A stretch of 64,000 bases of DNA from positions 1 through 64,000 of the IMG/VR virus record IMGVR_UViG_3300049012_000071. One strand, written 5' to 3'. Source of the DNA: a virus (taxonomy: Duplodnaviria; Caudoviricetes). Shown piece after piece: positions 6,419-48,777 of this stretch (its first letter is position 1; each line of letters begins with the position of its first letter). The translations under genes and the position numbers were made by a program. Under the pieces are notes generated by a model. It was not told the origin of the DNA, did no database searches, and saw only the letters and a list, made by a program, of their open reading frames with translations.

Positions 6419-6726
6419 GGAGGAAAGCGGGGCAGGAGCAGAAGGTGGCCGAGGCTAAGCCCACCACGTTCTCGACGTGGCTCGACTTTGCCAACGTGGG
6501 GCAGGTGTGCATCGAGGTGCACGAGCGCGACGGCGTGAGGGTGACCGTGGAGCGAACCGATGGCGGGTTCGAGTCCCGGAGCCTCGGGGAGGAGAAGAAC
6601 CGCGAGCTCCACCGCGCCCTCTCCGCCTACATGGAGCCGCGCGAGAAGGCGCGCCTCCAAGCCGAGGCGCTGGCGAAGCTCTCGCCGGCGGAGCGGTGGG
6701 CGCTCGGGCTGGAGGAACGACGATGA
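6415..6726 (+). CDS. Hypothetical protein
   Basis: Coupled; ends in a common phage motif ALAKLSPAERWALGL. Confidence 0.6.
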   Translation: MRRKAGQEQKVAEAKPTTFSTWLDFANVGQVCIEVHERDGVRVTVERTDGGFESRSLGEEKNRELHRALSAYMEPREKARLQAEALAKLSPAERWALGLEERR

Positions 6727-12631: not shown

Positions 12632-13665
12632 GATGCTGCCACCGCCCGGAGAGCCACGTCGCGCGCGGCAGTCAGCGTCTCGAACCGCGCCCGGTCCCCG
12701 CCCTGGTCGGGGTGAGCCCGCTCGGCGGCGATCCGCTGCCGGTAGGCCCGCTGCACCTCGTCGGGCGTCGCGTCAGCGTCGAGGCCCAGCTCCGCGAGCG
12801 CCGCGTTGCGCTCTGCGCTCTGCTGCTGCGACCGCGCTATGGCGCGTCCGAGCGCTTCGCCGAACTCCCGCGCCTCGCGCTTGTAGCGCTCGTCCAGCTC
12901 GACCGCGGCGGCGTGCTCGCGCCAGAACTGATCGAGCTCGGCCTGCGGCGGCGGGGCGAGGTAAAGGCGCACCCCGTCCGGGCGCGGCCCGACGTGGCTC
13001 CAGCCCTGCTCGGCCAGGTCGCACAGGCACGGGGCGCAGGTTTCGACGCGCCACTCGGCCCGCGGGCGCCGGACGTCGAGATCGTACCTGCTCCCGAAGT
13101 CGCGGTAGCCCTCAGGCCGGCGGATCTGCACCTTCTCGACGCGGTAGCGGCCATCTCCCGGGCTCGCGAGATAGGCGTGCTTCGGCGTGCGCTTGAGCAT
13201 GGCCGAGAAGCGTCGGCGGACCTCGAGCCAGCGCGCGCGCTCCTCCTCGGTCGGCTCATGGTCGAAGACGTCGATCTGGAGGTCACAGCCGTAGAAGAAG
13301 CCGCAGATAGGTGGCTCCTTCCGGTAGTCGAATCGGCCTGACCCCGTGGTCCGGGCACGCCCGCCGCTCGCGACGCTCGAGAGGTCGTCGGCGTGAACCG
13401 ACATGTCGCCCCCGGGCGTCTCGATCAGCACGAAGTTCTCGTCGCCCTCGGAGAGCACGCGGCGCCGGACCGCGAGCGGCGGCCCGTCGATGCGCCCAGG
13501 GACGCGATGCAGGGTCCAGACGTGCCGCGGCGTCCAGCGAGAGCAGAGGTTGGCCTTCGCCGGCCCCGGGCGAGCGATCGCGTTCGCGCGCGGCGTCGGA
13601 CTCGGCGCCCAGGGCATCCCCGTCTGCGCGCTCTGCGGCGCGCCGCGGCTGCGCTTCCGGGTCAT
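12628..13665 (-). CDS. Protein with a C-terminal DnaJ J-domain
   Basis: LGLDADATPDEVQRAYRQRIAAERAHPDQGGDRARFETLTAARD with an intact HPD. Confidence 0.8.
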   Translation of the reverse strand: MTRKRSRGAPQSAQTGMPWAPSPTPRANAIARPGPAKANLCSRWTPRHVWTLHRVPGRIDGPPLAVRRRVLSEGDENFVLIETPGGDMSVHADDLSSVASGGRARTTGSGRFDYRKEPPICGFFYGCDLQIDVFDHEPTEEERARWLEVRRRFSAMLKRTPKHAYLASPGDGRYRVEKVQIRRPEGYRDFGSRYDLDVRRPRAEWRVETCAPCLCDLAEQGWSHVGPRPDGVRLYLAPPPQAELDQFWREHAAAVELDERYKREAREFGEALGRAIARSQQQSAERNAALAELGLDADATPDEVQRAYRQRIAAERAHPDQGGDRARFETLTAARDVALRAVAAS

Positions 13666-15032
13666 GCCAGCTCCCACACAGCGCGGTTCGCCTCTGCGCT
13701 GCGAGGCGCGGGCGCCACCGCGTCCTCCACCGGTTTCCTGCTCGGCGGCTTCAGCGGCCGGATGGCGGCGACGCAGGAAGCCTTGGCCTCGGCAGGCGTG
13801 AGCGGCCGCCGGGGCTGCGGAGGGGACGGCGAAGGCGGCGGTGCAGCCGGTGCCGTCCGTGGCTGGATGGCCTTTGCGCGCGGCGGATCAGGGGCAGACG
13901 CGGCGGGTGCGACGACGGAGACGGGGGCAGCATCGACGGCAGGCGCCTCGGGCGGCGGCAGAGTCGGAGGTGGAGGCGCTGGCGGTGGCAGTGGAGGTGG
14001 AGTTTGTCGTCGTGCCGGGATCTCCGGCGGCTCCGCACCCCACAGCACGGCGTCGTCCTCGGCGACCAGCCGGCGAACCGCGCGCTCGAGCTTCTCCAAC
14101 GCCTTCACCTTGATCTGCCGGATGCGCTCCCGCGTGCGGTCGAAGCTGGCGCCGACCTCCTCGAGCGTCTCCGGGTCGTCGGCGAGCACCATGCGCCGGA
14201 CGACCTCCTGCTCCTGGGCGGTGAGCCACGTCATGGCCCGGCCGATCAGCTCCCGCCGGCGCGCCTGCGCGTCCTCGTCGACCACGGCGTCCTCCGGGCC
14301 GGGCTCGGCGTCGGCGGTCATCTCGCCGAGCGTGGAGCCGTCGTCCTCGTGTCCGAGAACGGGAGCGTCGAGGCGGCGCGGCTCCAGGAGCAGGCGTGCC
14401 GCGGCCGCCTTGTCCGACATGCCCTCGCCAGCGCGTCGCTCCTTGCGGATCGTCTGGTGCATGTGCGTCGGCACCCGGATGTCGGACCCCTGGTCGTCGA
14501 GCGCGCACTGGAGACGCTGCCTCATCCAGATGATCGCGTACGTGGAGAGCTTCGCGCCCTCCTCCGCGCGCCACTTCGAGGCCGCGTGGATGAATCCCAT
14601 CCGGGCCCACTGGATGAGGTCGTCGTCGTCGAGGCCCCGGTTCCGGTACTTCATGGCCAGCTTGAGGATCAGGCGCTCATGCGCCTCGAGCAGGATGTCC
14701 CCCGCGCGGCGGTCGCCGGCCTGGTAGCGGCGAATGAGCGCCACCTCCTCGTCGCCAGCGATGTCCGTGTGGGTGGCGCGTGGCTTCGGCGACTCTTCAT
14801 GGGTCGCCGGGCGCGGATGCGTCGGCTTCGGCGCGACGCGATCGGACTGGGGCGGCGCCGGGCGCACGACGGCGCAGGCTTTGACCGCGCGCGACGTGGC
14901 CTCAGCCACGGGCACGACAGCCGCTGCCCTACGGGGCTCTCGGCGGGCGGGCACGTCGAGCAGCAAGACCGGCGCGGGGGCCACCGTCCCCGAGGCGCGG
15001 CGCTTCTCGGCCCAGGAGGCGGCGAGATTCAT
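13662..15032 (-). CDS. RNA polymerase sigma70-family factor (RpoH/RpoD-like) with Pro-rich extensions
   Basis: Region 2 DDLIQWARMGF...KLSTYAIIWMR; region 4 TLEEVGASFDRTRERIRQI. Confidence 0.85.
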   Translation of the reverse strand: MNLAASWAEKRRASGTVAPAPVLLLDVPARREPRRAAAVVPVAEATSRAVKACAVVRPAPPQSDRVAPKPTHPRPATHEESPKPRATHTDIAGDEEVALIRRYQAGDRRAGDILLEAHERLILKLAMKYRNRGLDDDDLIQWARMGFIHAASKWRAEEGAKLSTYAIIWMRQRLQCALDDQGSDIRVPTHMHQTIRKERRAGEGMSDKAAAARLLLEPRRLDAPVLGHEDDGSTLGEMTADAEPGPEDAVVDEDAQARRRELIGRAMTWLTAQEQEVVRRMVLADDPETLEEVGASFDRTRERIRQIKVKALEKLERAVRRLVAEDDAVLWGAEPPEIPARRQTPPPLPPPAPPPPTLPPPEAPAVDAAPVSVVAPAASAPDPPRAKAIQPRTAPAAPPPSPSPPQPRRPLTPAEAKASCVAAIRPLKPPSRKPVEDAVAPAPRSAEANRAVWELA

Positions 15033-17262: not shown

Positions 17263-18174
17263 TCACCCGTGCTCCGCCACAGCCTTCCTCGCCGGCCGCA
17301 GCGGGCGCACTGCCGCGGTCTGCTCCGGCGGCTTCCGCGGGGCCACCTTCGCGCGCGGACGTGGAGCCGACGCATGCAGCGGCTCTCGCCTCCGCATCGG
17401 GCCCTTCGGCAGGTCGCCGCCCCAGAGCACGGCGTCGTCCTCTGCCACGACAAGCCGCAGTGCTCTGCCCAGCTTCCGCATCACCTCCGCCTCCACCTGC
17501 CGCGCGCGCTCACGGCAGACGCCCCAGCTTTCGCCGATGGCGACCAGCGTCTCCGGCTCCTCCGCGAGCAGCCGGCGGCAGGCCAACTCGCGCTCCCGCT
17601 CGCTCATGCAGGTCATCGCGCGGTTGAGCAGGCGGCGCATCCGGGTCAGCGCGTCGCCGTCGACCGCGGACTCCTCCGGCAATGGTTCCTCGGCTGGGAC
17701 GATGTCCTCGAGCGTCATGTCGTCGCCGCCCATCGGCGCGCTGAGGCTCAGCGTATTCCGGAGGAGCAGCCGCAGCTGAAGCCGCTCCGGGATCTCATGC
17801 CCGGCCTTCCGGTGCTCCTGGATCTGGTTGTCGACGGTGCGGCCGACGGCGATCGTTGACCCTTCGGCAGCAACGGCCTTCTGGGCGTACGCCCACGCCC
17901 AGTCCTTCGCGTAGGTGTTGAGCCGGTTGCCCAGTGAGGGGTCGAACCGGCGGATCGCCTCCAGGTACCCTTCGCGCCCGGCCTGCATCACATCGTCCTT
18001 GTCGAGGCCTCGGCCGAACCATTGCCGCACCGCCTCGTGGATGAACGGGTCGTGCGCCTGAACCAGCAGGCCGCCAGCAGCGGAGTCTCCAGCCTGGCAT
18101 CTGCGGATGAGGTCCGCCTCGATCTCGCGCGTCAGATGACGGTAGGTGAACCGGCTGGTAGTGAGTAACTGCAT
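17263..18174 (-). CDS. RNA polymerase sigma70-family factor (RpoH-like)
   Basis: HLTREIEADL, DDVMQAGREGYLEAIRRFDP..GNRLNTYA, TLVAIGESWGVCRERARQVE. Confidence 0.88.
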   Translation of the reverse strand: MQLLTTSRFTYRHLTREIEADLIRRCQAGDSAAGGLLVQAHDPFIHEAVRQWFGRGLDKDDVMQAGREGYLEAIRRFDPSLGNRLNTYAKDWAWAYAQKAVAAEGSTIAVGRTVDNQIQEHRKAGHEIPERLQLRLLLRNTLSLSAPMGGDDMTLEDIVPAEEPLPEESAVDGDALTRMRRLLNRAMTCMSERERELACRRLLAEEPETLVAIGESWGVCRERARQVEAEVMRKLGRALRLVVAEDDAVLWGGDLPKGPMRRREPLHASAPRPRAKVAPRKPPEQTAAVRPLRPARKAVAEHG

Positions 18175-36927: not shown

Positions 36928-37431
36928 TTACGGTGGGCGTCTGCTGCGCTCCCGGCGGTCGACAAACAGCATGTAGGCCATATTCCCGACGAACCTGGGC
37001 GTCAGTGGTCTCGGGTACACGTCGCTATCGTGGACCTGTCCAGCAAGCTCGAACGACTCGTCGTCGAGTTCTGGTCGATCGGCCCGCGCTTCTTCGAGTA
37101 CCCGAGGCCACTCCTCGCGCTCACTGAGGCGAGGGTGCTCAACCTTCGACCGGGATCCAGATTTCGGGACGCCGCCGGACGACGCGTACCATTCACGGGC
37201 CGCCGCCTCGAGTTCGCCGACGCTGCTGTAGCCCAGCACCCGGCCGATCCCCTCCGCCGCCATCCAGCCGCCGCCCTTGCCCTGGTTGATAAGGCGGCTT
37301 ACGTGCGACTCCTTAAGGCCAGAGCGGCGCGCGAGGTCTGCCGCCGACCGGTGGTCTCGGTCCTCGTCGAGCCACTCCAGGATCTTCTTCTTCAGGAACG
37401 GACCAATGTGGGGACCGATGGCTCTCGACAT
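36928..37431 (-). CDS. CI-like XRE HTH repressor (no S24 peptidase domain)
   Basis: SAADLARRSGLKESHVSRLIN; divergent from the cro-like gene. Confidence 0.75.
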   Translation of the reverse strand: MSRAIGPHIGPFLKKKILEWLDEDRDHRSAADLARRSGLKESHVSRLINQGKGGGWMAAEGIGRVLGYSSVGELEAAAREWYASSGGVPKSGSRSKVEHPRLSEREEWPRVLEEARADRPELDDESFELAGQVHDSDVYPRPLTPRFVGNMAYMLFVDRRERSRRPP

Positions 37432-37451
37432 ACCGGTGGACCGTATCACGC

Positions 37452-37523
37452 CGTAACTTAACGATAATTTAGACGTCACGTTGGCCAACCTTGACGCTGT
37501 TCTTAACTTGAGTTAAGTTAAGG
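37452..37523 (+). promoter_or_regulatory. OR operators and PR promoter
   Basis: Perfect CTTAACTT-N5-AAGTTAAG at 37502-37522; degenerate CGTAACTT-N5-TAATTTAG at 37452-37472; TTGACG-17bp-TAAGTT. Confidence 0.8.
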
Positions 37524-37525
37524 CC

Positions 37526-37810
37526 ATGCCCAAGAAGCCGAGCCCCGGCGCCGCGCTGCGGCACATGATCGAGGCCGCCAAGTCCCTCGACCCGGAACTC
37601 ACCGACTCAGCCGTCGCGCGCGCGATCGGCGTGTCCCAGCCGGCGCTGACCAGCTGGTGTGATGAGGACAAGACCCCCACCGCCAGGAACAGGCTGGCCA
37701 TCGAGCGGTGGATGAGCGGCCTGCTGGCGGCCCTGCCGAAGGCGTGGACCGACATCGAGGCCGCCGATGTCGCCGCGAACGTCACTCCGTTCACCGCCAA
37801 GGCGAGCTGA
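37526..37810 (+). CDS. Cro-like HTH protein, probably leaderless
   Basis: TDSAVARAIGVSQPALTSW...P; ATG 7 nt after the -10 element, no SD. Confidence 0.75.
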   Translation: MPKKPSPGAALRHMIEAAKSLDPELTDSAVARAIGVSQPALTSWCDEDKTPTARNRLAIERWMSGLLAALPKAWTDIEAADVAANVTPFTAKAS

Positions 37811-41122: not shown

Positions 41123-41515
41123 ATGGCGTTGCAGGACCAGGCCAAGAAGCCCCGCGGGTTTGCGGCCATGACGCCGGAGCGTCGCCGCGAGGTCGCCAGC
41201 GCCGCCGGGAAGGCTGCGCATGCGCAAGGGCGTGCGCCCGAGTTCACTCCAGAGCAGGCGCGCGCGGCGGGCCGGAAGGGCGGGGAAGCCGTGAGCGCCG
41301 ACCGGGAGCACATGCGGGCGATCGGGCGGCGCGGCGGCGAGAGAACGAGCGCAGACCCGGCGCACATGGCCGAGATCGGTCGCGCCGGAGGTAATGCCGC
41401 CCACGCGAACGGCGCGGCGCATCAGTGGACTGCCGAGGAGGCCCGCGCCGCTCGCCGGAAGGTGGGTGGGAAGCGGAAGACGGAAGCGCTGCAGAGCCGC
41501 AACGCGGAGAGCTGA
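41123..41515 (+). CDS. KGG-repeat stress-induced (GsiB/YciG-like) protein
   Basis: RGFAAM.PE..RE.AS..GK, AGRKGG, DREHMRAIGRRGG repeats. Confidence 0.85.
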   Translation: MALQDQAKKPRGFAAMTPERRREVASAAGKAAHAQGRAPEFTPEQARAAGRKGGEAVSADREHMRAIGRRGGERTSADPAHMAEIGRAGGNAAHANGAAHQWTAEEARAARRKVGGKRKTEALQSRNAES

Positions 41516-41726
41516 GGAGGGCGTCATGGGCGAGACGATGGTCACCGGCGGGCTTCAAAAAAATCGACATGCGTCGTCGGTCTTAGAAACCGCTGCTCGT
41601 GAGCGCAACACCGCGCAGCGTGTGAGCATTGGCCCGTCGGCGACAGCGCAATTCAGCGCATACTGCGCGCAACGGCCGAGTGTGCGGCGGTTTGCCCACA
41701 TTCGTCCGTTCTGCCACGGTCGGCCC

Positions 41727-42389
41727 ATGCGGTTTCCGATTGCTGGCGATCCGATCGCACTGACGCACCTTGTGCCTGGTGAACTGGTCAATCTTCGCGA
41801 CGGAAGCAGCGAAGATGTCGTGGTCGGCGTCGACCTACCGACGTGCCACCGCGTGCCGAAGCGCCGAGGCATGTACGCGTTCGCGCGCAACGGTGTCGAG
41901 GCCTGCATCTACCGGCGCAGGTGGCGCTGGTACATCGCCGTGGGCGACCATCCGGAGCGCGGTCTGCACAAGACCGAAGACGCGTCGCTCGCACAGGCCT
42001 TGTGGGTCGCCGAGTGCCACATCGACCGGTTCTACTTCAGTGACGGGACGCGGCGCCCGTGCCCAGAGGGCCACGTCTACTTCCTCCAGTCGGTCCGCGG
42101 CGGCCCGATCAAGGTCGGGTACGCGGCCGACCTCCGTGCGCGGGTCTCGAATATCCAGGTCGGCCACCCAGAGGAGCTGGAGGTGATCGGCGTGGTGCGC
42201 GGTACGCCGGAACTTGAAGAGGCGCTCCACAAGGAATTCGCCTGGTGCCACGTCCGCGGGGAGTGGTTCGCCCCCAGCGAGGCCTTGCGCTTGGCGATCG
42301 ATGACCTTGAGGAGCGCGACGAACTGGGGGAGCGACTGGTCGACGTCGTGCGGAGCGGCTTGTTCGAGGAGGAGGACTGCGATGCGTGA
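41727..42389 (+). CDS. GIY-YIG-like (T5orf172/MUG113) protein
   Basis: VYFLQ..GPIKVGY..RV..IQVGHP..LEEALHKEF..RGEWF; start uncertain. Confidence 0.8.
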   Translation: MRFPIAGDPIALTHLVPGELVNLRDGSSEDVVVGVDLPTCHRVPKRRGMYAFARNGVEACIYRRRWRWYIAVGDHPERGLHKTEDASLAQALWVAECHIDRFYFSDGTRRPCPEGHVYFLQSVRGGPIKVGYAADLRARVSNIQVGHPEELEVIGVVRGTPELEEALHKEFAWCHVRGEWFAPSEALRLAIDDLEERDELGERLVDVVRSGLFEEEDCDA

Positions 42390-42729
42390 CGTCACGGTGG
42401 ACCAGATCGTCGAGCGTGTGGTCGCGGTGCTGCGTCCTGAGCTGGACGCCATCCGCCAGCTCGTCGAGCGCTCTCCCGTTCCGGGTAACGACGCCCAGAC
42501 GGGCCAGCTCCTCACGCGCGAGGAGCTCGCCGCAGCGCTCCGCCTCAGCGAGGCGACGCTGAAGCGTTGGGACCAGGACGGCTGCCCGCGCGTGCTCATC
42601 GGCAACCGGCTCCCGCGATACCGGCTCGCCGACGTTCTGGCATGGCGCAGCACGGCGCCGTCGAAGCCGGCGCGGGTCTCGGCGGTGAAGCCCGCGCCCG
42701 TGCGGCTGCTCTCGCGGGGGAGGAGGTAG
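42382..42729 (+). CDS. xis: Excisionase (AlpA/HTH_17-like)
   Basis: LLTREELAAALRLSEATLKRW..GCP..PRY..DVLAW, immediately upstream of int. Confidence 0.75.
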   Translation: MRDVTVDQIVERVVAVLRPELDAIRQLVERSPVPGNDAQTGQLLTREELAAALRLSEATLKRWDQDGCPRVLIGNRLPRYRLADVLAWRSTAPSKPARVSAVKPAPVRLLSRGRR

Positions 42730-42731
42730 CC

Positions 42732-44573
42732 ATGGGCAGGCCCAGGACCGGCAACTTCAAGCTCATCAACGGCACGTGGCACGTCCGCAACACCGTCGAG
42801 CCCGGCGTGCGCAAGACGTTCGACATGGGCACGTCCTCGCTCACCGAGGCGAAGCGCCTGAACAAGCAGATCCTGGCGAGGATAGCAAAGGGCGAGAGCC
42901 TCGACGACCTCGCCGAGGCCGCCGCCTCGCCGGGGACCTTCGCCGAGTACGCCAAGACGGTGAACGACCGCCGCCGCGCGCGCGGCATCGTGAGCGCGAC
43001 CGACGAGTGGCAGCGCCTCCGCGACCACGCCTTCCCCATCGTCGGCGGCATGACCCTCCGCGACGTCAGGCCGCGCCATATTCGCGACGTCCTCGAGGCA
43101 GCCGTCGCCACCGGCGCCGCGCCGCAGACGATCCGCCACCTTCGTGCCGCGATGTACAAGGTGTTCCGCTCCGCGGTGGTCGACGAGCTCGTCGAGGAGA
43201 ACGTCGTCGCCAAGGTCGACCCACCCGCCGGGGTGCGCGTGAAGAAGGTCCGCGTTCAGCTCACGGACGATGAGTTCTCGCGTCTCATCGACCACCTGAC
43301 CGAGACCATCGAAACCGAGGATGCCGATGCGAAGGCGGCTGCGGCGCCGACGTGGATGCGCAACGCGCGCACACGCGCCGCGTATGACAAATGGCGGCCG
43401 CACATCGAGGCGTGCGCCGCGTCCGGCATGGACCACGTCGCGTATGCGAAGCAGCACCGGCTTCGATCCGACGTCCTCCTCGGCTACATCCGACGGGCGC
43501 AGGACTACAGCAGCCGCGAGCAGGCGCGCGTCTTCGGCCGGCGGACACCAGCTGGCGAACTCCGGATGCTCGCGATCGGCGCCCGCACCATCGGCGGGCA
43601 GCGCACCAGCGACCTCATCCGCGCCGACTGGCTCAACTTCGACCTCCCGGCGTTCACGCGTGGGATCGTCGTCAGCAGCAAGACCAAGAAGCCGCGTCCG
43701 CTCCTCATCCCTGATGAAGTGCGCCCGCTCCTCATCGACTGGTGGCGGCGCAGCGGGTCGCCCACGCACGGCCCGGTCTTTCCCGTCCTCCGCGGCCCGA
43801 GGCTGGGGCAGCGCCGGCGCGAGCGCGGCGTCTCGTTCGCTGCTCGCCTTCGGACCGCGTGTCGCGCGGCCGGGCTTACGCGCCCAGGGCTCTACGAGGA
43901 GACCGACTACACCCTGCCGGCGGACTTCCACAGCTTCCGCCGCGCCTTCGTGACGGCACTGCGGCGCGCAGGCGTCCCCGCCGATGTGGCGATGAAGTTG
44001 AGCGGTCACTCCAGTCGCGAGATCCACGAGATCTACGTGGGCGACGACCCGGCCTTCCAGGCAATGCCGGCCGGCGCAATCCCGCGCCTTCCCAACCTGA
44101 GCCTGACGTCACAGGTGGTCCCGCTGACTCTGCCCGGGGCTTCCGCTTCTGCCTCGCTCGACGGCGAAACCGCCATCGTCCAGCGAGATCCCTCGCGCGC
44201 CACGCAGGATTCGAACCTGCGGCCTTCGGCTCCGGAGGCCGACGGAGAGAGCTCAGAGGAGCCTCCAAGTACCTGTCCTGCGCCTCTGGCGCGGGACGAA
44301 AGCAGCTCAGAAGAGCTCACGGCGGCTCACGGCGGATCAGGGTTTCGGCTTTTTCTGCCACAAGGATCCGACGTGTCCGGAGCCATTCCGCCACGGGTTC
44401 CGCCGCACCGAAGCGAGCGGGCTGGGCAGCGGCTGGAGGAGGGGCTCCGGGTGGCCATGGGTCCTGGCCCGGTGCGGGTCCGCGAGGAGCGTGTCCTTGA
44501 GCTTCTCGCCGGCGCCTGCGCTGACCTCTGCCTGACCCCCTCGCGCTCCGGCGCGGCTGGAGGTGGCCGGTGA
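42732..44573 (+). CDS. int: Tyrosine integrase with internal attP and long C-terminal tail
   Basis: GQRTSDL (R), SSKTK (K), FHSFRR, SGHS, EIY; GGAGG RBS. Confidence 0.92.
   Translation: MGRPRTGNFKLINGTWHVRNTVEPGVRKTFDMGTSSLTEAKRLNKQILARIAKGESLDDLAEAAASPGTFAEYAKTVNDRRRARGIVSATDEWQRLRDHAFPIVGGMTLRDVRPRHIRDVLEAAVATGAAPQTIRHLRAAMYKVFRSAVVDELVEENVVAKVDPPAGVRVKKVRVQLTDDEFSRLIDHLTETIETEDADAKAAAAPTWMRNARTRAAYDKWRPHIEACAASGMDHVAYAKQHRLRSDVLLGYIRRAQDYSSREQARVFGRRTPAGELRMLAIGARTIGGQRTSDLIRADWLNFDLPAFTRGIVVSSKTKKPRPLLIPDEVRPLLIDWWRRSGSPTHGPVFPVLRGPRLGQRRRERGVSFAARLRTACRAAGLTRPGLYEETDYTLPADFHSFRRAFVTALRRAGVPADVAMKLSGHSSREIHEIYVGDDPAFQAMPAGAIPRLPNLSLTSQVVPLTLPGASASASLDGETAIVQRDPSRATQDSNLRPSAPEADGESSEEPPSTCPAPLARDESSSEELTAAHGGSGFRLFLPQGSDVSGAIPPRVPPHRSERAGQRLEEGLRVAMGPGPVRVREERVLELLAGACADLCLTPSRSGAAGGGR
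44194..44244 (-). other. attP: attP core: 3' half of tRNA-Arg(CCG)
   Basis: Minus strand TCGGC-CTCCGGA-GCCGA (anticodon CCG), GCAGG-TTCGAAT-CCTGC (T-arm), GTGGCGC-G; no D-arm or 5' half. Confidence 0.88.
44315..44334. repeat. Tandem GCTCACGGCG x2, candidate integrase arm sites
   Basis: Exact 10-bp tandem about 70 bp from the core; a TTCCGCC pair follows near 44386-44404. Confidence 0.45.
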
Positions 44574-44992
44574 GGCGCCGCCCCCTTCAGACCGAAGCTC
44601 AGCGCGTCGTCGGCGCCGCGGTTCGTGAGCAGTTCGGCTACCCGCGCGTCAGCAACGTCCGGATGCGTCAGCTCAAGCTGGCGTGCCTCGAGTGCGGCGC
44701 GCCCATGGAGACATGGCGCATGCACCGGGCGTGCTGGGTCTGTCCCAACCTGGCGCACTACACCGGCGCTGAGTGGTTCTGGTCGCGGCGTCTGGACCGG
44801 AAGCGCTACGGCCTGAAGCTCCAGAAGAAGTTCGGCAACCGCTACGTGCGCCGGTACCTCGTTCGCGTGCCGCCCCGCCGCGTCCGCCGCGCGGTCGTCT
44901 TCGGACTGATCGCGATGGTGAGGTTCGCGCAGGCGCACTCGTGCGCCTCGTGCCCGGCCGTTCCTTCCACTGCCCAGGAGACCGCCCGATGA
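44570..44992 (+). CDS. Basic Zn-ribbon protein
   Basis: CLECG...WVCPN; GTGA-coupled to the int stop. Confidence 0.55.
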   Translation: MRRRPLQTEAQRVVGAAVREQFGYPRVSNVRMRQLKLACLECGAPMETWRMHRACWVCPNLAHYTGAEWFWSRRLDRKRYGLKLQKKFGNRYVRRYLVRVPPRRVRRAVVFGLIAMVRFAQAHSCASCPAVPSTAQETAR

Positions 44993-45534
44993 GCGACCAC
45001 GTTGCGATGCAAGGCAGCGCGTTCGTCTGCCTCCACTGCGGCCAGAGGTACGAGCCCGCGATGCCGTGCCCGATCAACATCTGGCTGGCTTCCTCCAAGG
45101 CGTTCCAGAAGGACCACCGGCGGTGCAAGGCGCCTGAGACGCCGGTCTGCCGGTTCTGTCGGTCGGCCACGCACGACGACGAGAACCACGTCGCCGCGAC
45201 CGTGAAGCACCCGATGGACTGGCCTGGCTGCGGCGACACCGGCCTGAGCTCGCAGGCGATCTGGCAGCACATGACCGGGCTCACCCTCCCAGGAAGGTGG
45301 AGCGGCCGCATGGAGTACCCGCTCGACCCGGACGACTTCGGCCGCTGCTACCGGCTGCTGTCCGCGCCGTGGGCCGCTGAATGGCGCGCCCGCGTCGGCG
45401 AGATGGCGAAGTACCCGGGGTGGCCCGGGCTCGTGGCCCGCTGGGATGAACTGGAGGCGCTCTATCGAAAGGAGCGCCCGAAGGGCAGGGCCCCGAAGCT
45501 CTACGCGGCGATGCAGGAGGCGCTCGGCCGATGA
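44989..45534 (+). CDS. Conserved phage protein with Zn finger
   Basis: CLHCG; DTGLSSQAI; PLDPDDFGRCYRLL. Confidence 0.75.
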   Translation: MSDHVAMQGSAFVCLHCGQRYEPAMPCPINIWLASSKAFQKDHRRCKAPETPVCRFCRSATHDDENHVAATVKHPMDWPGCGDTGLSSQAIWQHMTGLTLPGRWSGRMEYPLDPDDFGRCYRLLSAPWAAEWRARVGEMAKYPGWPGLVARWDELEALYRKERPKGRAPKLYAAMQEALGR

Positions 45535-45851
45535 AGCGCCACCGCTCAACCCCGCGCACCTTCCGCCTCTACGAGCGCCTCGCCGACGGTCCGCGCGGCT
45601 ACGTCGCGTCGCTTGGCTGCCCCGCGTGCGGCGGCATCGACGACGACCACGCGCCTGGGTGCCGCCAGGCCAGCCGGGCGCAGTTCGGTGCCCACCACGT
45701 CGGCAAGGTGAACGCGAGCTTGCCCGGCGACTACGCCGCGCTCAGCGATGAGCCCGGCGCGGCGGGGCCTTCGCGCGCCCGGAGCACGCACACGTCCAGG
45801 TCGTCGACGGTGCAGCGGGACCCGGCTCCGGTTGGGAGGTCGCCCCGATGA
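45531..45851 (+). CDS. Hypothetical protein
   Basis: CPACGG..H..GC; coupled. Confidence 0.5.
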   Translation: MKRHRSTPRTFRLYERLADGPRGYVASLGCPACGGIDDDHAPGCRQASRAQFGAHHVGKVNASLPGDYAALSDEPGAAGPSRARSTHTSRSSTVQRDPAPVGRSPR

Positions 45852-46309
45852 GCATCGCCTCCCTCATCGACCGGGCGCAGGGCGCGCACGAGGCCGCTCT
45901 CCTCCGCCGCGGCGTCACCGCTGCCGAGATCGCCGACGCGCCCGATGCTGACCGCGAGCGCCTCGAGCGTGTCCGCGGCAGCGCGAACGAGCGGCGCGTC
46001 CTCGCTGCCCTCCACCGGGCCGCGCTCCCGAACTGGATCGTCGGCATCCGCGCCGGCCGGACGACAGAGGACCGGCGCGGCGGCGACATCGCCGTGCTCT
46101 GCGACGACGGGAAGCGGTGCTGGCTCCAGGTGAAGAGCAGCACTGCGGGCGCGCAGAAGTTCATCGCGGAGGCGCGGCGCCGGGGCCGCGTCGGCGTGAT
46201 CGGCATCGTGGTCGTGCCCGACCGGATCACCGATCGCCAGATCGTCGGCCGCGTGCTCGCGACGCTGATCGAGATGCGGGCCCAGCGCGCGGGGGAGGCT
46301 GGCCGATGA
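45848..46309 (+). CDS. PD-(D/E)xK nuclease-like protein
   Basis: ED..GGDIAV...LQVKSS. Confidence 0.6.
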   Translation: MSIASLIDRAQGAHEAALLRRGVTAAEIADAPDADRERLERVRGSANERRVLAALHRAALPNWIVGIRAGRTTEDRRGGDIAVLCDDGKRCWLQVKSSTAGAQKFIAEARRRGRVGVIGIVVVPDRITDRQIVGRVLATLIEMRAQRAGEAGR

Positions 46310-46620
46310 GCGTCGACGAGCTGCTCACCGCCGTCGCGTCCGACCTCCGGGCCATCGGCCACGTCGTCCCGGAGTCGCTCGCGACCGACACCGAGCGCGC
46401 CGATGCACTATTCGCCGCCGGCGCCGCGGTCCGCTGCATCGACCGCCGCATCCACCTCCGCTTCGCCGCGCGCTTCCTCGCGTGTGCCTTCGAGGCTCGT
46501 GCCGAGGGCGAGCGCGAGGAAGCGGATCGCTGGGCCGCGAAGAGCGCGGCGGAGCTTGAGCTCTACCGCGCGCCGGCCCCGGAACTCCAGCCGTACGTGA
46601 CCCACGGAGGTGCCTCGTGA
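46306..46620 (+). CDS. Hypothetical protein
   Basis: Coupled ORF. Confidence 0.55.
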   Translation: MSVDELLTAVASDLRAIGHVVPESLATDTERADALFAAGAAVRCIDRRIHLRFAARFLACAFEARAEGEREEADRWAAKSAAELELYRAPAPELQPYVTHGGAS

Positions 46621-47231
46621 CGCAGCTCGCCTTCGCTCTCGACATCGCCGCGCCGGCTGAGTCGCCGGCTCCCACGCCAGCCACAGGGCGCGCCGCGCGC
46701 AGCCCGGATCGGAGTTCTCAGCAGGTGCAGCAACAACAGCAACGTCAGGGACCCGCCGTCGACTTCTCGCAGTGGCTCTCTCCGGACGAGATGGAGCGCG
46801 TCCAGGCCTACGCCGACGAGGTGATGCGCCAGCTTCACGAGCGGCCGGCGTTCCGCGATGGCGACGCGAAGGACCGCGCCCACCTGCTGCGCCGGTACGC
46901 GGCCGGTCTGCTCCTCGCCGGCGGGAAGGCGCTCGCGCTGGCGGATCTGGCCGAGGCCTCTGGCGCCGCGGAGAAGGACTCGGCCGAGCCCGCGCCTGCG
47001 CCGGTGAAACGCGGCCCCGGCCGGCCCAAGAAGGGCCCGAGCGCTCCGTCCGCCGACCACCCCGCCGCGGTTAGGATGCGCATGCCGTCTGCGCCGCGCC
47101 TCAGACGTGGCCTGGAGGAGAGCGCCGCGCCCGCGCCTGCCGCGACGAGGAAGCCGCAGCCAACGGCCGACGAGGTGCTGGCGAAGTACCGCGGGCTGAA
47201 GACGCCGCAGCGCGCCGGGAGGTCGGGGTGA
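46617..47231 (+). CDS. Hypothetical protein with AT-hook-like motif
   Basis: KRGPGRPKK; coupled. Confidence 0.55.
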   Translation: MTQLAFALDIAAPAESPAPTPATGRAARSPDRSSQQVQQQQQRQGPAVDFSQWLSPDEMERVQAYADEVMRQLHERPAFRDGDAKDRAHLLRRYAAGLLLAGGKALALADLAEASGAAEKDSAEPAPAPVKRGPGRPKKGPSAPSADHPAAVRMRMPSAPRLRRGLEESAAPAPAATRKPQPTADEVLAKYRGLKTPQRAGRSG

Positions 47232-47713
47232 TGCTCGACGTCCTCCAGATCGCCGCGAGCATCGCGCCCGGGGACCTCGCGGCGCTCCAGGCGCACGCGT
47301 CCGAGATCGTCGCCGAGGAGATCCGCGACGCGGGCGCTCGCTTCGTCGGGCCGGAGTTGCTCTACCGGCTCGAGCACACGGCGATCCTGCACCTGCTCGT
47401 GACCGGGCTCCTCATGCGTCACGTCGAGGCGACCGAGGCCGAGCCCGTCGAGATCGTCTCTGCCGGCCGGCGTCGCCGGTGCGCTCCTCTTCGCCGATGG
47501 CACGGACGTCTGCGCGCGCTGGCCTTCGTGACACAGCGCCGGCGCGGGCGACGAACCCAGCTCCGCGTGCGCTGCCGTTGCGCCTGCGGAGAGATCGTCA
47601 CCGTGCTGAAAGACGACCTCCGGCGCCGCAAGGTGCGGAGTTGCGGGTGCCGCCGAGACGAGCTGACGGCGCAGCGGAACCGCGAGCGAGCGGAGATGAG
47701 GAGGGCGGCTTGA
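47228..47713 (+). CDS. Protein with one CxC..SCGC module
   Basis: CRCACG...L..KVRSCGC. Confidence 0.55.
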   Translation: MMLDVLQIAASIAPGDLAALQAHASEIVAEEIRDAGARFVGPELLYRLEHTAILHLLVTGLLMRHVEATEAEPVEIVSAGRRRRCAPLRRWHGRLRALAFVTQRRRGRRTQLRVRCRCACGEIVTVLKDDLRRRKVRSCGCRRDELTAQRNRERAEMRRAA

Positions 47714-48777
47714 GTCGCAACGATCCAATTCCTTTGCAAGAGCGCTACGGCCGCCTGCGTGTGCTGCGTCCCGCGGAAAGTGGGAAGAGCGGGCGCAGGA
47801 TGGTTCTAGTTCAATGTGACTGTGGCTCTAAGCCCAAAACCGTCGCATGGACGAACCTGCGCGACGGATTGACTAGAAGCTGCGGGTGTCTCCAAACCGA
47901 ACGTGCACGAGAACGGATGAAGATTCTAGCGACAGCCACAACAAACGGCACCGCGACCGGGCGGGTACACGTGCCGCTTCAGGTTGGCGATGTGTTCGAG
48001 CGCCTCACCGTGCTCGCAAAGGCGCCAGTGAATCGCGGGGGCGTGCGCTACTGGTGCCTTTGCGAGTGCGGCAACTTCGCCTGCGTGCCAGCATGTCGAC
48101 TGCGCGCGGGTCGAAGCAGGAGCTGCGGCTGCCTCGCTGTCGACGTGCGCCGGGCGAATCATGCGGCCAAGATCGCCGAAGCAGCCGCGTCGGCCACGGC
48201 GAGCATCGCATCGGCGACGCGCGAACCGCACGTCGACACAGCAGTCCATCCAGGCAATTCTGGAAAGAAGAAGCGCGCCCCAGAGAGACAGCCAGGCCAA
48301 TCCGTGGAGGAGTGGTTCTGGTCGCGGACTCTGCGGGCTGCGAACGGGTGCCTGGAATGGCAGAACGCCATTCACGACACTGGGTATGGTGTTTTCGCCA
48401 TCGGCAAGAAGATGTTTCGTGCACACCGGTACGCTTGGGAGATCACCAACGGACAGATCCCGGTCGGGCTCTTCGTCTGCCACCGATGCGACAACAGGAA
48501 ATGCGTAGACCCGGCTCATCTGTTTCTTGGCACGCAGATGGACAACATGCGCGACATGTCCAGCAAAGGCAGGTCGGGCAGTGTTGTACGCCCGGAAAAG
48601 TTGAGCCGCGGCAGCCACAGGTACAACGCGAAACTGTCGGAGGAAGCTGTCCGATTCATTCGCGCAGCGTACGCCGAAGGTGGCGTCACACAGAAGGAGC
48701 TTGGTCGCAAGTACGGCGTGCCGAGAGCACTGATCACTAAGGTGATCAACTGGGAAGCGTGGAGGCACGTCCAATGA
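47710..48777 (+). CDS. HNH homing endonuclease
   Basis: CLEW..GYG..AHRYAW..VCHRCDNRKCVDPAHL..N, two SCGC modules and a C-terminal HTH; AT-richer. Confidence 0.9.
   Translation: MSRNDPIPLQERYGRLRVLRPAESGKSGRRMVLVQCDCGSKPKTVAWTNLRDGLTRSCGCLQTERARERMKILATATTNGTATGRVHVPLQVGDVFERLTVLAKAPVNRGGVRYWCLCECGNFACVPACRLRAGRSRSCGCLAVDVRRANHAAKIAEAAASATASIASATREPHVDTAVHPGNSGKKKRAPERQPGQSVEEWFWSRTLRAANGCLEWQNAIHDTGYGVFAIGKKMFRAHRYAWEITNGQIPVGLFVCHRCDNRKCVDPAHLFLGTQMDNMRDMSSKGRSGSVVRPEKLSRGSHRYNAKLSEEAVRFIRAAYAEGGVTQKELGRKYGVPRALITKVINWEAWRHVQ

Follow-up and report, generated by a model that had tools for sequence, protein, structure and literature searches.

In the Myxococcus phage Mx8, the phage attachment site (attP) is reportedly located inside the integrase gene (int) and directed at a tRNA-Asp gene, and the long and short forms of the enzyme (IntP and IntX) are said to differ in activity, with Tojo et al. 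1996 and Tojo and Komano 2003 as the corresponding papers. The Mx8 record itself holds the antisense T arm and acceptor of a tRNA inside int at about positions 6440-6470, approximately 110 codons before the stop codon. For the integrase of Mx9, attP is likewise said to be placed within int, with a tRNA-Gly gene as the target (Julien 2003). A comparable arrangement is found in the stretch of DNA analyzed here (the window), i.e. the first 64 kb of the 101,652-bp IMG/VR virus record IMGVR_UViG_3300049012_000071, in which an attP core lies within the gene of a tyrosine integrase (Int) at positions 42732-44573 of the plus strand. Integration at a host tRNA-Arg(CCG) gene would swap the tail of Int, with long and short forms as in the case of IntP and IntX, an interpretation to which we assign a probability of about 85%. 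While the IntP/IntX arrangement is known from Mx8, the tRNA-Arg(CCG) target, Sorangium as the host genus, and the much larger size of the phage are new.

Both Mx8 and the phage studied here encode a tyrosine integrase, and in both the core is the antisense of a tRNA 3' part that follows the catalytic Tyr codon within int. A tail of about 110 residues is replaced by few host-encoded residues upon integration, i.e. by four in the prediction for the present phage and reportedly by 13 in Mx8. The genomic setting is alike as well, as int resides in an arm of uniform direction, where it is followed by HNH, replication and terminase genes and preceded directly by a small helix-turn-helix (HTH) gene in the position of uoi. 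In contrast to Mx8, the present phage targets tRNA-Arg(CCG) and has Sorangium (Polyangiaceae) instead of Myxococcus as its host, its genome comprises approximately 100-127 kb instead of 49.5 kb, and Int carries an extra insert of about 90 amino acids between its two domains. Pairwise BLASTP aligned the two integrases with 28% identity over the N-terminal 134 residues (E 2e-9), with the catalytic domain and the tail left unaligned. The initial annotation of the window had proposed the logic of Mx8 with a different tRNA, which agrees with the architecture and the tRNA-Arg(CCG) target of the locus, for integrases that appear only distantly related.

Two further systems connect int to the integration state in other ways. 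In the int-sib retroregulation of phage lambda, integration at attP alters what lies 3' of int and acts on mRNA stability via a noncoding site beyond the stop codon; int expression is thus tied to integration in both cases, whereas here the coding sequence itself would be changed. In SSV-type integrases, the split of the gene removes a part of the protein that is needed for activity, and the enzyme is lost. The SSV1-type attachment site is likewise situated within an integrase gene that is partitioned by integration, yet the predicted 508-residue prophage form described here keeps both domains and all catalytic residues, and merely the C-terminal extension would be exchanged. In the Islander paper, Mx8 and SSV serve as examples of integrases that extend across attP, and a review terms SSV1-type integrases "suicidal" and exclusively archaeal (PMC8371274).

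The attachment site within int and its counterpart in Sorangium

The int frame is open from a TTG at 42567, with the ATG at 42732 as the likely start, which is common to homologues of 603-617 amino acids. The resulting protein of 613 residues, i.e. the unintegrated attP (IntP-like) form, matches the Pfam families Phage_int_M and Phage_integrase (PF22022 and PF00589, central and catalytic domains). Its residues R291, H400, R403, H426 and Y435 are invariant in both alignments generated (A1 and A2) and represent a complete catalytic set, with the Tyr435 codon at 44034-44036 of the plus strand. In five full-length homologues (603-617 amino acids, down to 50% identity), the frame remains open to the same end, and an identical 613-residue Int (P0032) was called on another contig of 40,451 bp. 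A search based on alignment A1 gave no related loci in genome or viral contigs and only three distant relatives in metagenome contigs, while tblastn of Int against a phage collection afforded no match at 1e-5. A 2,701-nt contig from a root-metagenome RNA-seq library, about 93% identical, spans int, core and tail unbroken (window positions 42500-44552). The long Int form of a relative may hence be transcribed, with DNA carry-over as another possible source of this contig.

The attP core comprises 50 bp at 44195-44244 on the minus strand and is an exact copy of the 3' part of a Sorangium tRNA-Arg(CCG) gene. It is antisense to int, begins 159 bp after the Tyr435 codon and covers int codons 488-505. 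The Rfam tRNA model matches 44196-44262 on the minus strand with 35.2 bits (E 5.6e-05). According to this alignment, the anticodon arm (CCG), variable loop, T arm and 3' acceptor strand within the core are perfect, while the tRNA-like segment is devoid of a D arm and shows mismatches of its 5' acceptor strand in two out of seven pairs. The initial annotation, which had recognized the 3' half of a tRNA-Arg (CCG) on the minus strand inside the int open reading frame (ORF), thus proved correct to within a base or two in its coordinates. Its estimates of about 160 bp between the catalytic Tyr codon and the core and of about 110 codons beyond the core, coupled to the next gene, compare with measured values of 159 bp and 109 codons with a GTGA overlap.

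In a scan of one genome per prokaryotic species, the sole exact match to the core was the tRNA-Arg(CCG) gene of Sorangium sp. So ce1014, so that the match to a host tRNA-Arg(CCG) envisaged at the outset could be found over the full 50 bp. The identity begins two bases ahead of the anticodon stem, includes one base beyond the discriminator, and ends sharply on both sides. The core occurs once in the 101,652-bp record, and an exact-pattern scan of viral contigs gave no match. As an Int homologue was looked for in the So ce1014 genome and none was found, its tRNA-Arg(CCG) site looks like an empty bacterial attachment site (attB). In-silico recombination with this attB yields an Int of 508 amino acids ending in ...PEAD-ALSS-stop, in which residues 505-613 are replaced by four residues; the stop codon after ALSS is the antisense of a TCA in the tRNA D arm.

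Among contigs from public sequencing runs, the source soil metagenome spans attP in one contig (four runs). Loose ends at 44195-44244 in such contigs were considered as left and right prophage attachment sites (attL and attR) and rejected, since they represent tRNA-Arg genes of other organisms with 4-6 mismatches. An imperfect direct repeat (44223-44262 and 44277-44316; 70% over 40 nt, 54 bp apart) starts within the core and recurs in the early tail. It could reflect Int binding (arm-type) sites or the relic of an older core, at a similarity not clearly above chance.

The tail beyond the core (residues 505-613, 109 codons; 44244-44570, plus strand), which would be exchanged for ALSS upon integration, was compared with that of an integrated relative in a genome referred to as G305 (see below). 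Over 104 aligned codons, 8, 10 and 26 differences fall on the first, second and third codon positions, respectively, with 20 synonymous and 16 nonsynonymous codon changes and indels of whole codons. The corresponding values for the Int body are 91, 70 and 175 differences and 121 synonymous versus 127 nonsynonymous changes. Judged from these substitution patterns, the tail is a real coding sequence under purifying selection that is at least as strong as that on the Int body. AlphaFold2 together with distant integrases delimits a two-helix module at residues 558-598 (44403-44525, plus strand), with helices at 558-576 and 581-598 (predicted local distance difference test, pLDDT, of about 72), while residues 457-555 including the tRNA-encoded peptide score below 50. 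Hence, the core-encoded peptide, which follows the catalytic Tyr at a distance of 53 residues, is probably part of a disordered linker. With only the tail as the query, an exhaustive profile-free search gave few matches, among them the integrases P0033 and P0034, which are only 26% identical to Int overall and contain other antisense-tRNA peptides, and which nevertheless retain the terminal module at approximately 50% identity.

An integrated relative and the proposed recombination

Using the DNA directly downstream of the core, 19 genomes of the genus of So ce1014 were searched. The match in G305, a Sorangium-genus genome of 15.5 Mb, starts at the first base after the core and belongs to a prophage of approximately 127 kb (G305:C1:2704859-2832032, loci L059-L069). 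Two copies of the tRNA 3' part are present in direct orientation at a distance of 127,124 bp, and the prophage ends share an identity block of 50 bp. At the right copy, a complete tRNA-Arg(CCG) is entered by a frame that shares 74% identity with Int residues 1-509 and terminates behind ALSS with a length of 508 amino acids, whereas at the left copy a frame 83% identical to Int residues 487-613 is located behind a displaced tRNA fragment. When the two halves are joined, an ORF of 608 amino acids results that meets the following gene in the same GGTGA sequence. On the int side, 1.6 kb of host flank share 94% identity with the flank of the So ce1014 attB, and another homologue, P0006 from an NCBI genome, also ends in ALSS. 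A natural attL/attR pair, which the initial annotation had suggested to look for, therefore exists in this relative and is split exactly at the 50-bp block. Its claim that integration rewrites the C-terminus of Int is borne out in the same place, with residues 1-504 followed by ALSS-stop at one prophage end and the tail about 127 kb away at the other.

These data suggest a Campbell-type recombination with the chromosomal tRNA gene that would rebuild an intact tRNA. The crossover would probably fall within the anticodon stem-loop, where the identity block has its tRNA-5' edge. The int body would stay at one prophage end, where its frame enters the D-arm antisense and gains four new codons, thus shortening the protein from 613 to 508 amino acids, while the last 109 codons and the overlapping downstream genes would be carried to the other prophage end, approximately 100-127 kb away. 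Excision would then restore the long form. Rebuilding of the tRNA, truncation of Int and relocation of the tail are predicted for this phage and observed in the G305 sequence. By analogy to IntP and IntX of Mx8, the long form may be the integration-proficient enzyme, and the truncated prophage form, which would keep every catalytic residue, may behave differently. As the long form would exist solely on excised or infecting DNA and the short one in the prophage, the state of the DNA would set the form of the enzyme.

Several points weigh against this interpretation. An integrated copy of this exact phage was searched for and not found, and the closest relative in integrated form shows 74-83% identity and occupies a tRNA variant whose T stem differs; the use of a So ce1014-type site is therefore something that we infer from sequence identity only. 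The difference in activity between the long and short forms is in turn a proposal drawn from Mx8. Since the Mx8 integrase appears to be only a distant relative whose tail bears no detectable similarity to that of Int, its behavior may not transfer. Likewise, the AlphaFold2 model is poor (mean pLDDT 52.8, six sequences), which makes the disordered linker a weak element of the argument.

Conceivably, though this is doubtful, the two-helix module is a state-sensing domain that Int carries only when encoded by excised or infecting DNA, in which case it would promote integration or block excision, and that is removed by the recombination event. Together with the overlapping downstream genes, excision would then be required before read-through of the early operon. 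The core would be positioned in a disordered linker that tolerates any antisense-tRNA peptide, so that the tRNA target could change freely (at least 12 tRNAs in the Polyangiaceae).

Gene neighborhood and rival readings

The gene content of the record is that of a phage throughout, including cI/cro-like genes, recT, a helicase, two sigma-factor genes, dnaD-like and dnaB genes as well as genes for TerL, portal, protease, major head and baseplate proteins. A cI-like HTH gene (36928-37488, minus strand) and a cro-like HTH gene (37526-37810, plus strand), each with a weak, sub-threshold HTH match, are divergent and constitute the switch region at 36928-37810. The cro-like gene heads the rightward arm that contains int. 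Directly upstream of int, a candidate excisionase or Uoi-like HTH ORF (42214-42729, plus strand; start possibly at 42382) ends 2 nt before the int ATG; it has a high GC content at third codon positions and a weak match to the excisionase-type Pfam family HTH_17 that remains below threshold (E 0.0088). This ORF is in turn preceded by a gene for a protein with a T5orf172/MUG113 (GIY-YIG-like) domain (41394-42389, plus strand).

On the other side, the int TGA (44571-44573) overlaps the GTG of the next ORF at 44570, resulting in the GTGA motif mentioned above. This first downstream gene (44570-44992, plus strand) encodes 140 amino acids without assignment to a family. It is followed on the plus strand by small genes at 44989-45534, 45531-45851 and 45848-46309 that are linked by overlapping stop and start codons, by about 300 bp after 46309 without a settled gene call, and by a gene at 46617-47231 that overlaps an HNH gene at 47228-47713 (both plus strand). 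Beyond the HNH gene, the rightward arm continues with tmk, a methyltransferase gene, dnaD-like, dnaB, terL and structural genes. Between the small-gene chain and tmk, a stretch of about 1 kb (47713-48759) has a GC content of 57-66% compared with approximately 70% elsewhere, harbors no ORF with the codon bias of the genome, and lacks an equivalent in the prophage of G305. It may serve a regulatory function or represent a gene acquired recently. In the leftward arm, two sigma-70-like genes with regions 2 and 4 (13662-15032 and 17263-18174, both minus strand) adjoin helicase, RecT, HNH and DUF5131 genes. This pair suggests phage-directed promoter switching.

With this layout, integration could sever the genes behind attP from the rightward early promoter (PR), such that replication and packaging genes would be expressed only after excision, as the initial annotation had envisaged for a recombination-driven switch. 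In line with this, int is embedded in a single-direction arm that runs from the cro-like gene (37526) through the dnaD-like, dnaB and terL genes to the structural genes. The preceding ORF stops 2 nt short of the int ATG, the int stop codon shares bases with the start of the gene behind it, and overlaps also link the next three genes. The gene order of Mx8 is the same, and in G305 the int body and the tail with its downstream genes are about 127 kb apart. As an account of the locus we nonetheless consider this reading unlikely, as the dependence on PR is deduced from geometry, and transcription of a 60-kb arm from one promoter is improbable. In addition, the low-GC stretch without a clear gene (47.7-48.8 kb), which is not conserved in G305, and the two phage sigma-factor genes make internal promoters likely for the genes 8-18 kb downstream. 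A sigma-70 consensus scan retrieved no promoter in 36-49 kb and two in the whole record, a consensus that says little for a myxobacterial phage. Hence, at most the genes at 44570-47713 would be gated by excision, which is plausible, while gating of the replication and terminase genes is unlikely. Only the overlapping chain at 44570-46309 is plausibly dependent on int, and this probably extends to 47713. Of the proposed switch, what stands is that everything after 44244 is moved to the far prophage end, whereas the reliance of the replication and terminase genes on PR probably does not hold.

Alternatively, the overlap of attP and int could be a matter of genome compaction, with a tail that is translated and an Int that works in the same way with or without it. 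The short form indeed keeps all catalytic residues plus 69 residues after Tyr435, and the tail sequences differ greatly between lineages. This explanation appears improbable in view of the coding-type purifying selection on the tail, which is no weaker than on the Int body, and of the two-helix module, which is about 50% identical in integrases with only 26% overall identity. Furthermore, tails of 88-109 amino acids recur in independent lineages, and that of Mx8 has about 112 residues as read from its sequence. A functional phage-encoded tRNA gene instead of an attachment site is far more remote still. It is what ARAGORN reports, with a 98-nt tRNA-Arg(TCT) at 44195-44292, and the gene calls of the source database split off the tail on this contig as a separate protein of 66 amino acids (P0027, 44373-44573), probably because the tRNA was called first. 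Yet the segment lacks a D arm and has mismatches in two of seven acceptor pairs according to the Rfam alignment, and its 98-nt fold is no better than that of shuffled sequence (z = -1.3), so that the ARAGORN call was rejected as an artefact. Moreover, the segment is situated within a conserved reading frame under selection, and it is precisely at the edges of this segment that the relative in G305 has recombined. ARAGORN makes the same 98-nt tRNA-Arg(TCT) call again where the G305 prophage ends on the tail side. As tRNA finders take the attP fragment for a tRNA and the end of int is then split off, integrases of this type are prone to misannotation.

A family of large Sorangium phages and the Polyangiaceae lineage

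Returning to an attP within int that exchanges the Int tail, the record as a whole fits the Campbell picture. By blastn, the record and the G305 prophage are collinear after circular permutation, with the break at attP: record positions 44195-101642 map from the left prophage end inward and positions 3392-44244 up to the right end, while the two ends of the record map only about 9 kb apart within the prophage. Taking the Campbell model and this collinearity together, the record is nearly complete and unintegrated, and the window hence is most of the unintegrated genome of a large temperate Sorangium phage of about 100 kb. The possibility that the record is itself an integrated prophage was rejected, given that its ends are free of host genes, the core is present in a single copy, and the order is circularly permuted relative to G305. 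Only about 16.6 kb of the G305 prophage and the record can be aligned by blastn, at 66-83% identity. The G305 prophage shows that a family of very large temperate Sorangium phages exists.

For a wider view, 301 genomes of the family of So ce1014 (Polyangiaceae by NCBI lineage) were sampled, 109 of which matched the integrase profile; this tally includes one unpublished genome (G257), on which no other claim depends. ARAGORN identified a complete tRNA gene at 24 of the 30 best loci, nearly always in convergent orientation and in contact with the 3' end of int. These tRNAs comprise Arg-CCG, Arg-TCG, Arg-TCT, Gly-CCC, Asn, Thr, Ser, Met, two Val, Pro and Asp. At 23 of these 24 loci, the int ORF reaches into the tRNA by 48-92 nt (in most cases 63-70 nt) before it stops, for the most part in the D-arm antisense. 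Many of the relatives adjoin tRNA-Gly(CCC), which is reminiscent of the reported tRNA-Gly target of Mx9. In two genomes for which both prophage ends are available, the attP form could be rebuilt, giving tails of 96 amino acids (G034) and about 88 amino acids (G113). The insert of about 90 amino acids in Int (residues ~186-275; 43287-43556), predicted to be helical and located between the core-binding and catalytic domains, occurs only in a close clade (P0002-P0005); it is missing from P0006, P0033 and P0034 and from all matches in the sampled genomes.

Taken together, the comparison of these loci shows, at the level of genome sequence, that placement of attP within int is a conserved strategy of a large Polyangiaceae integrase lineage with at least 12 tRNA targets. 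For Sorangium, a genus valued for its natural products in which genetic manipulation is difficult, the locus provides a defined attP, a matching attB in tRNA-Arg(CCG), and the corresponding integrase. Hence, the Mx8 arrangement, in which recombination rewrites the gene of the recombinase, is not peculiar to one Myxococcus phage.

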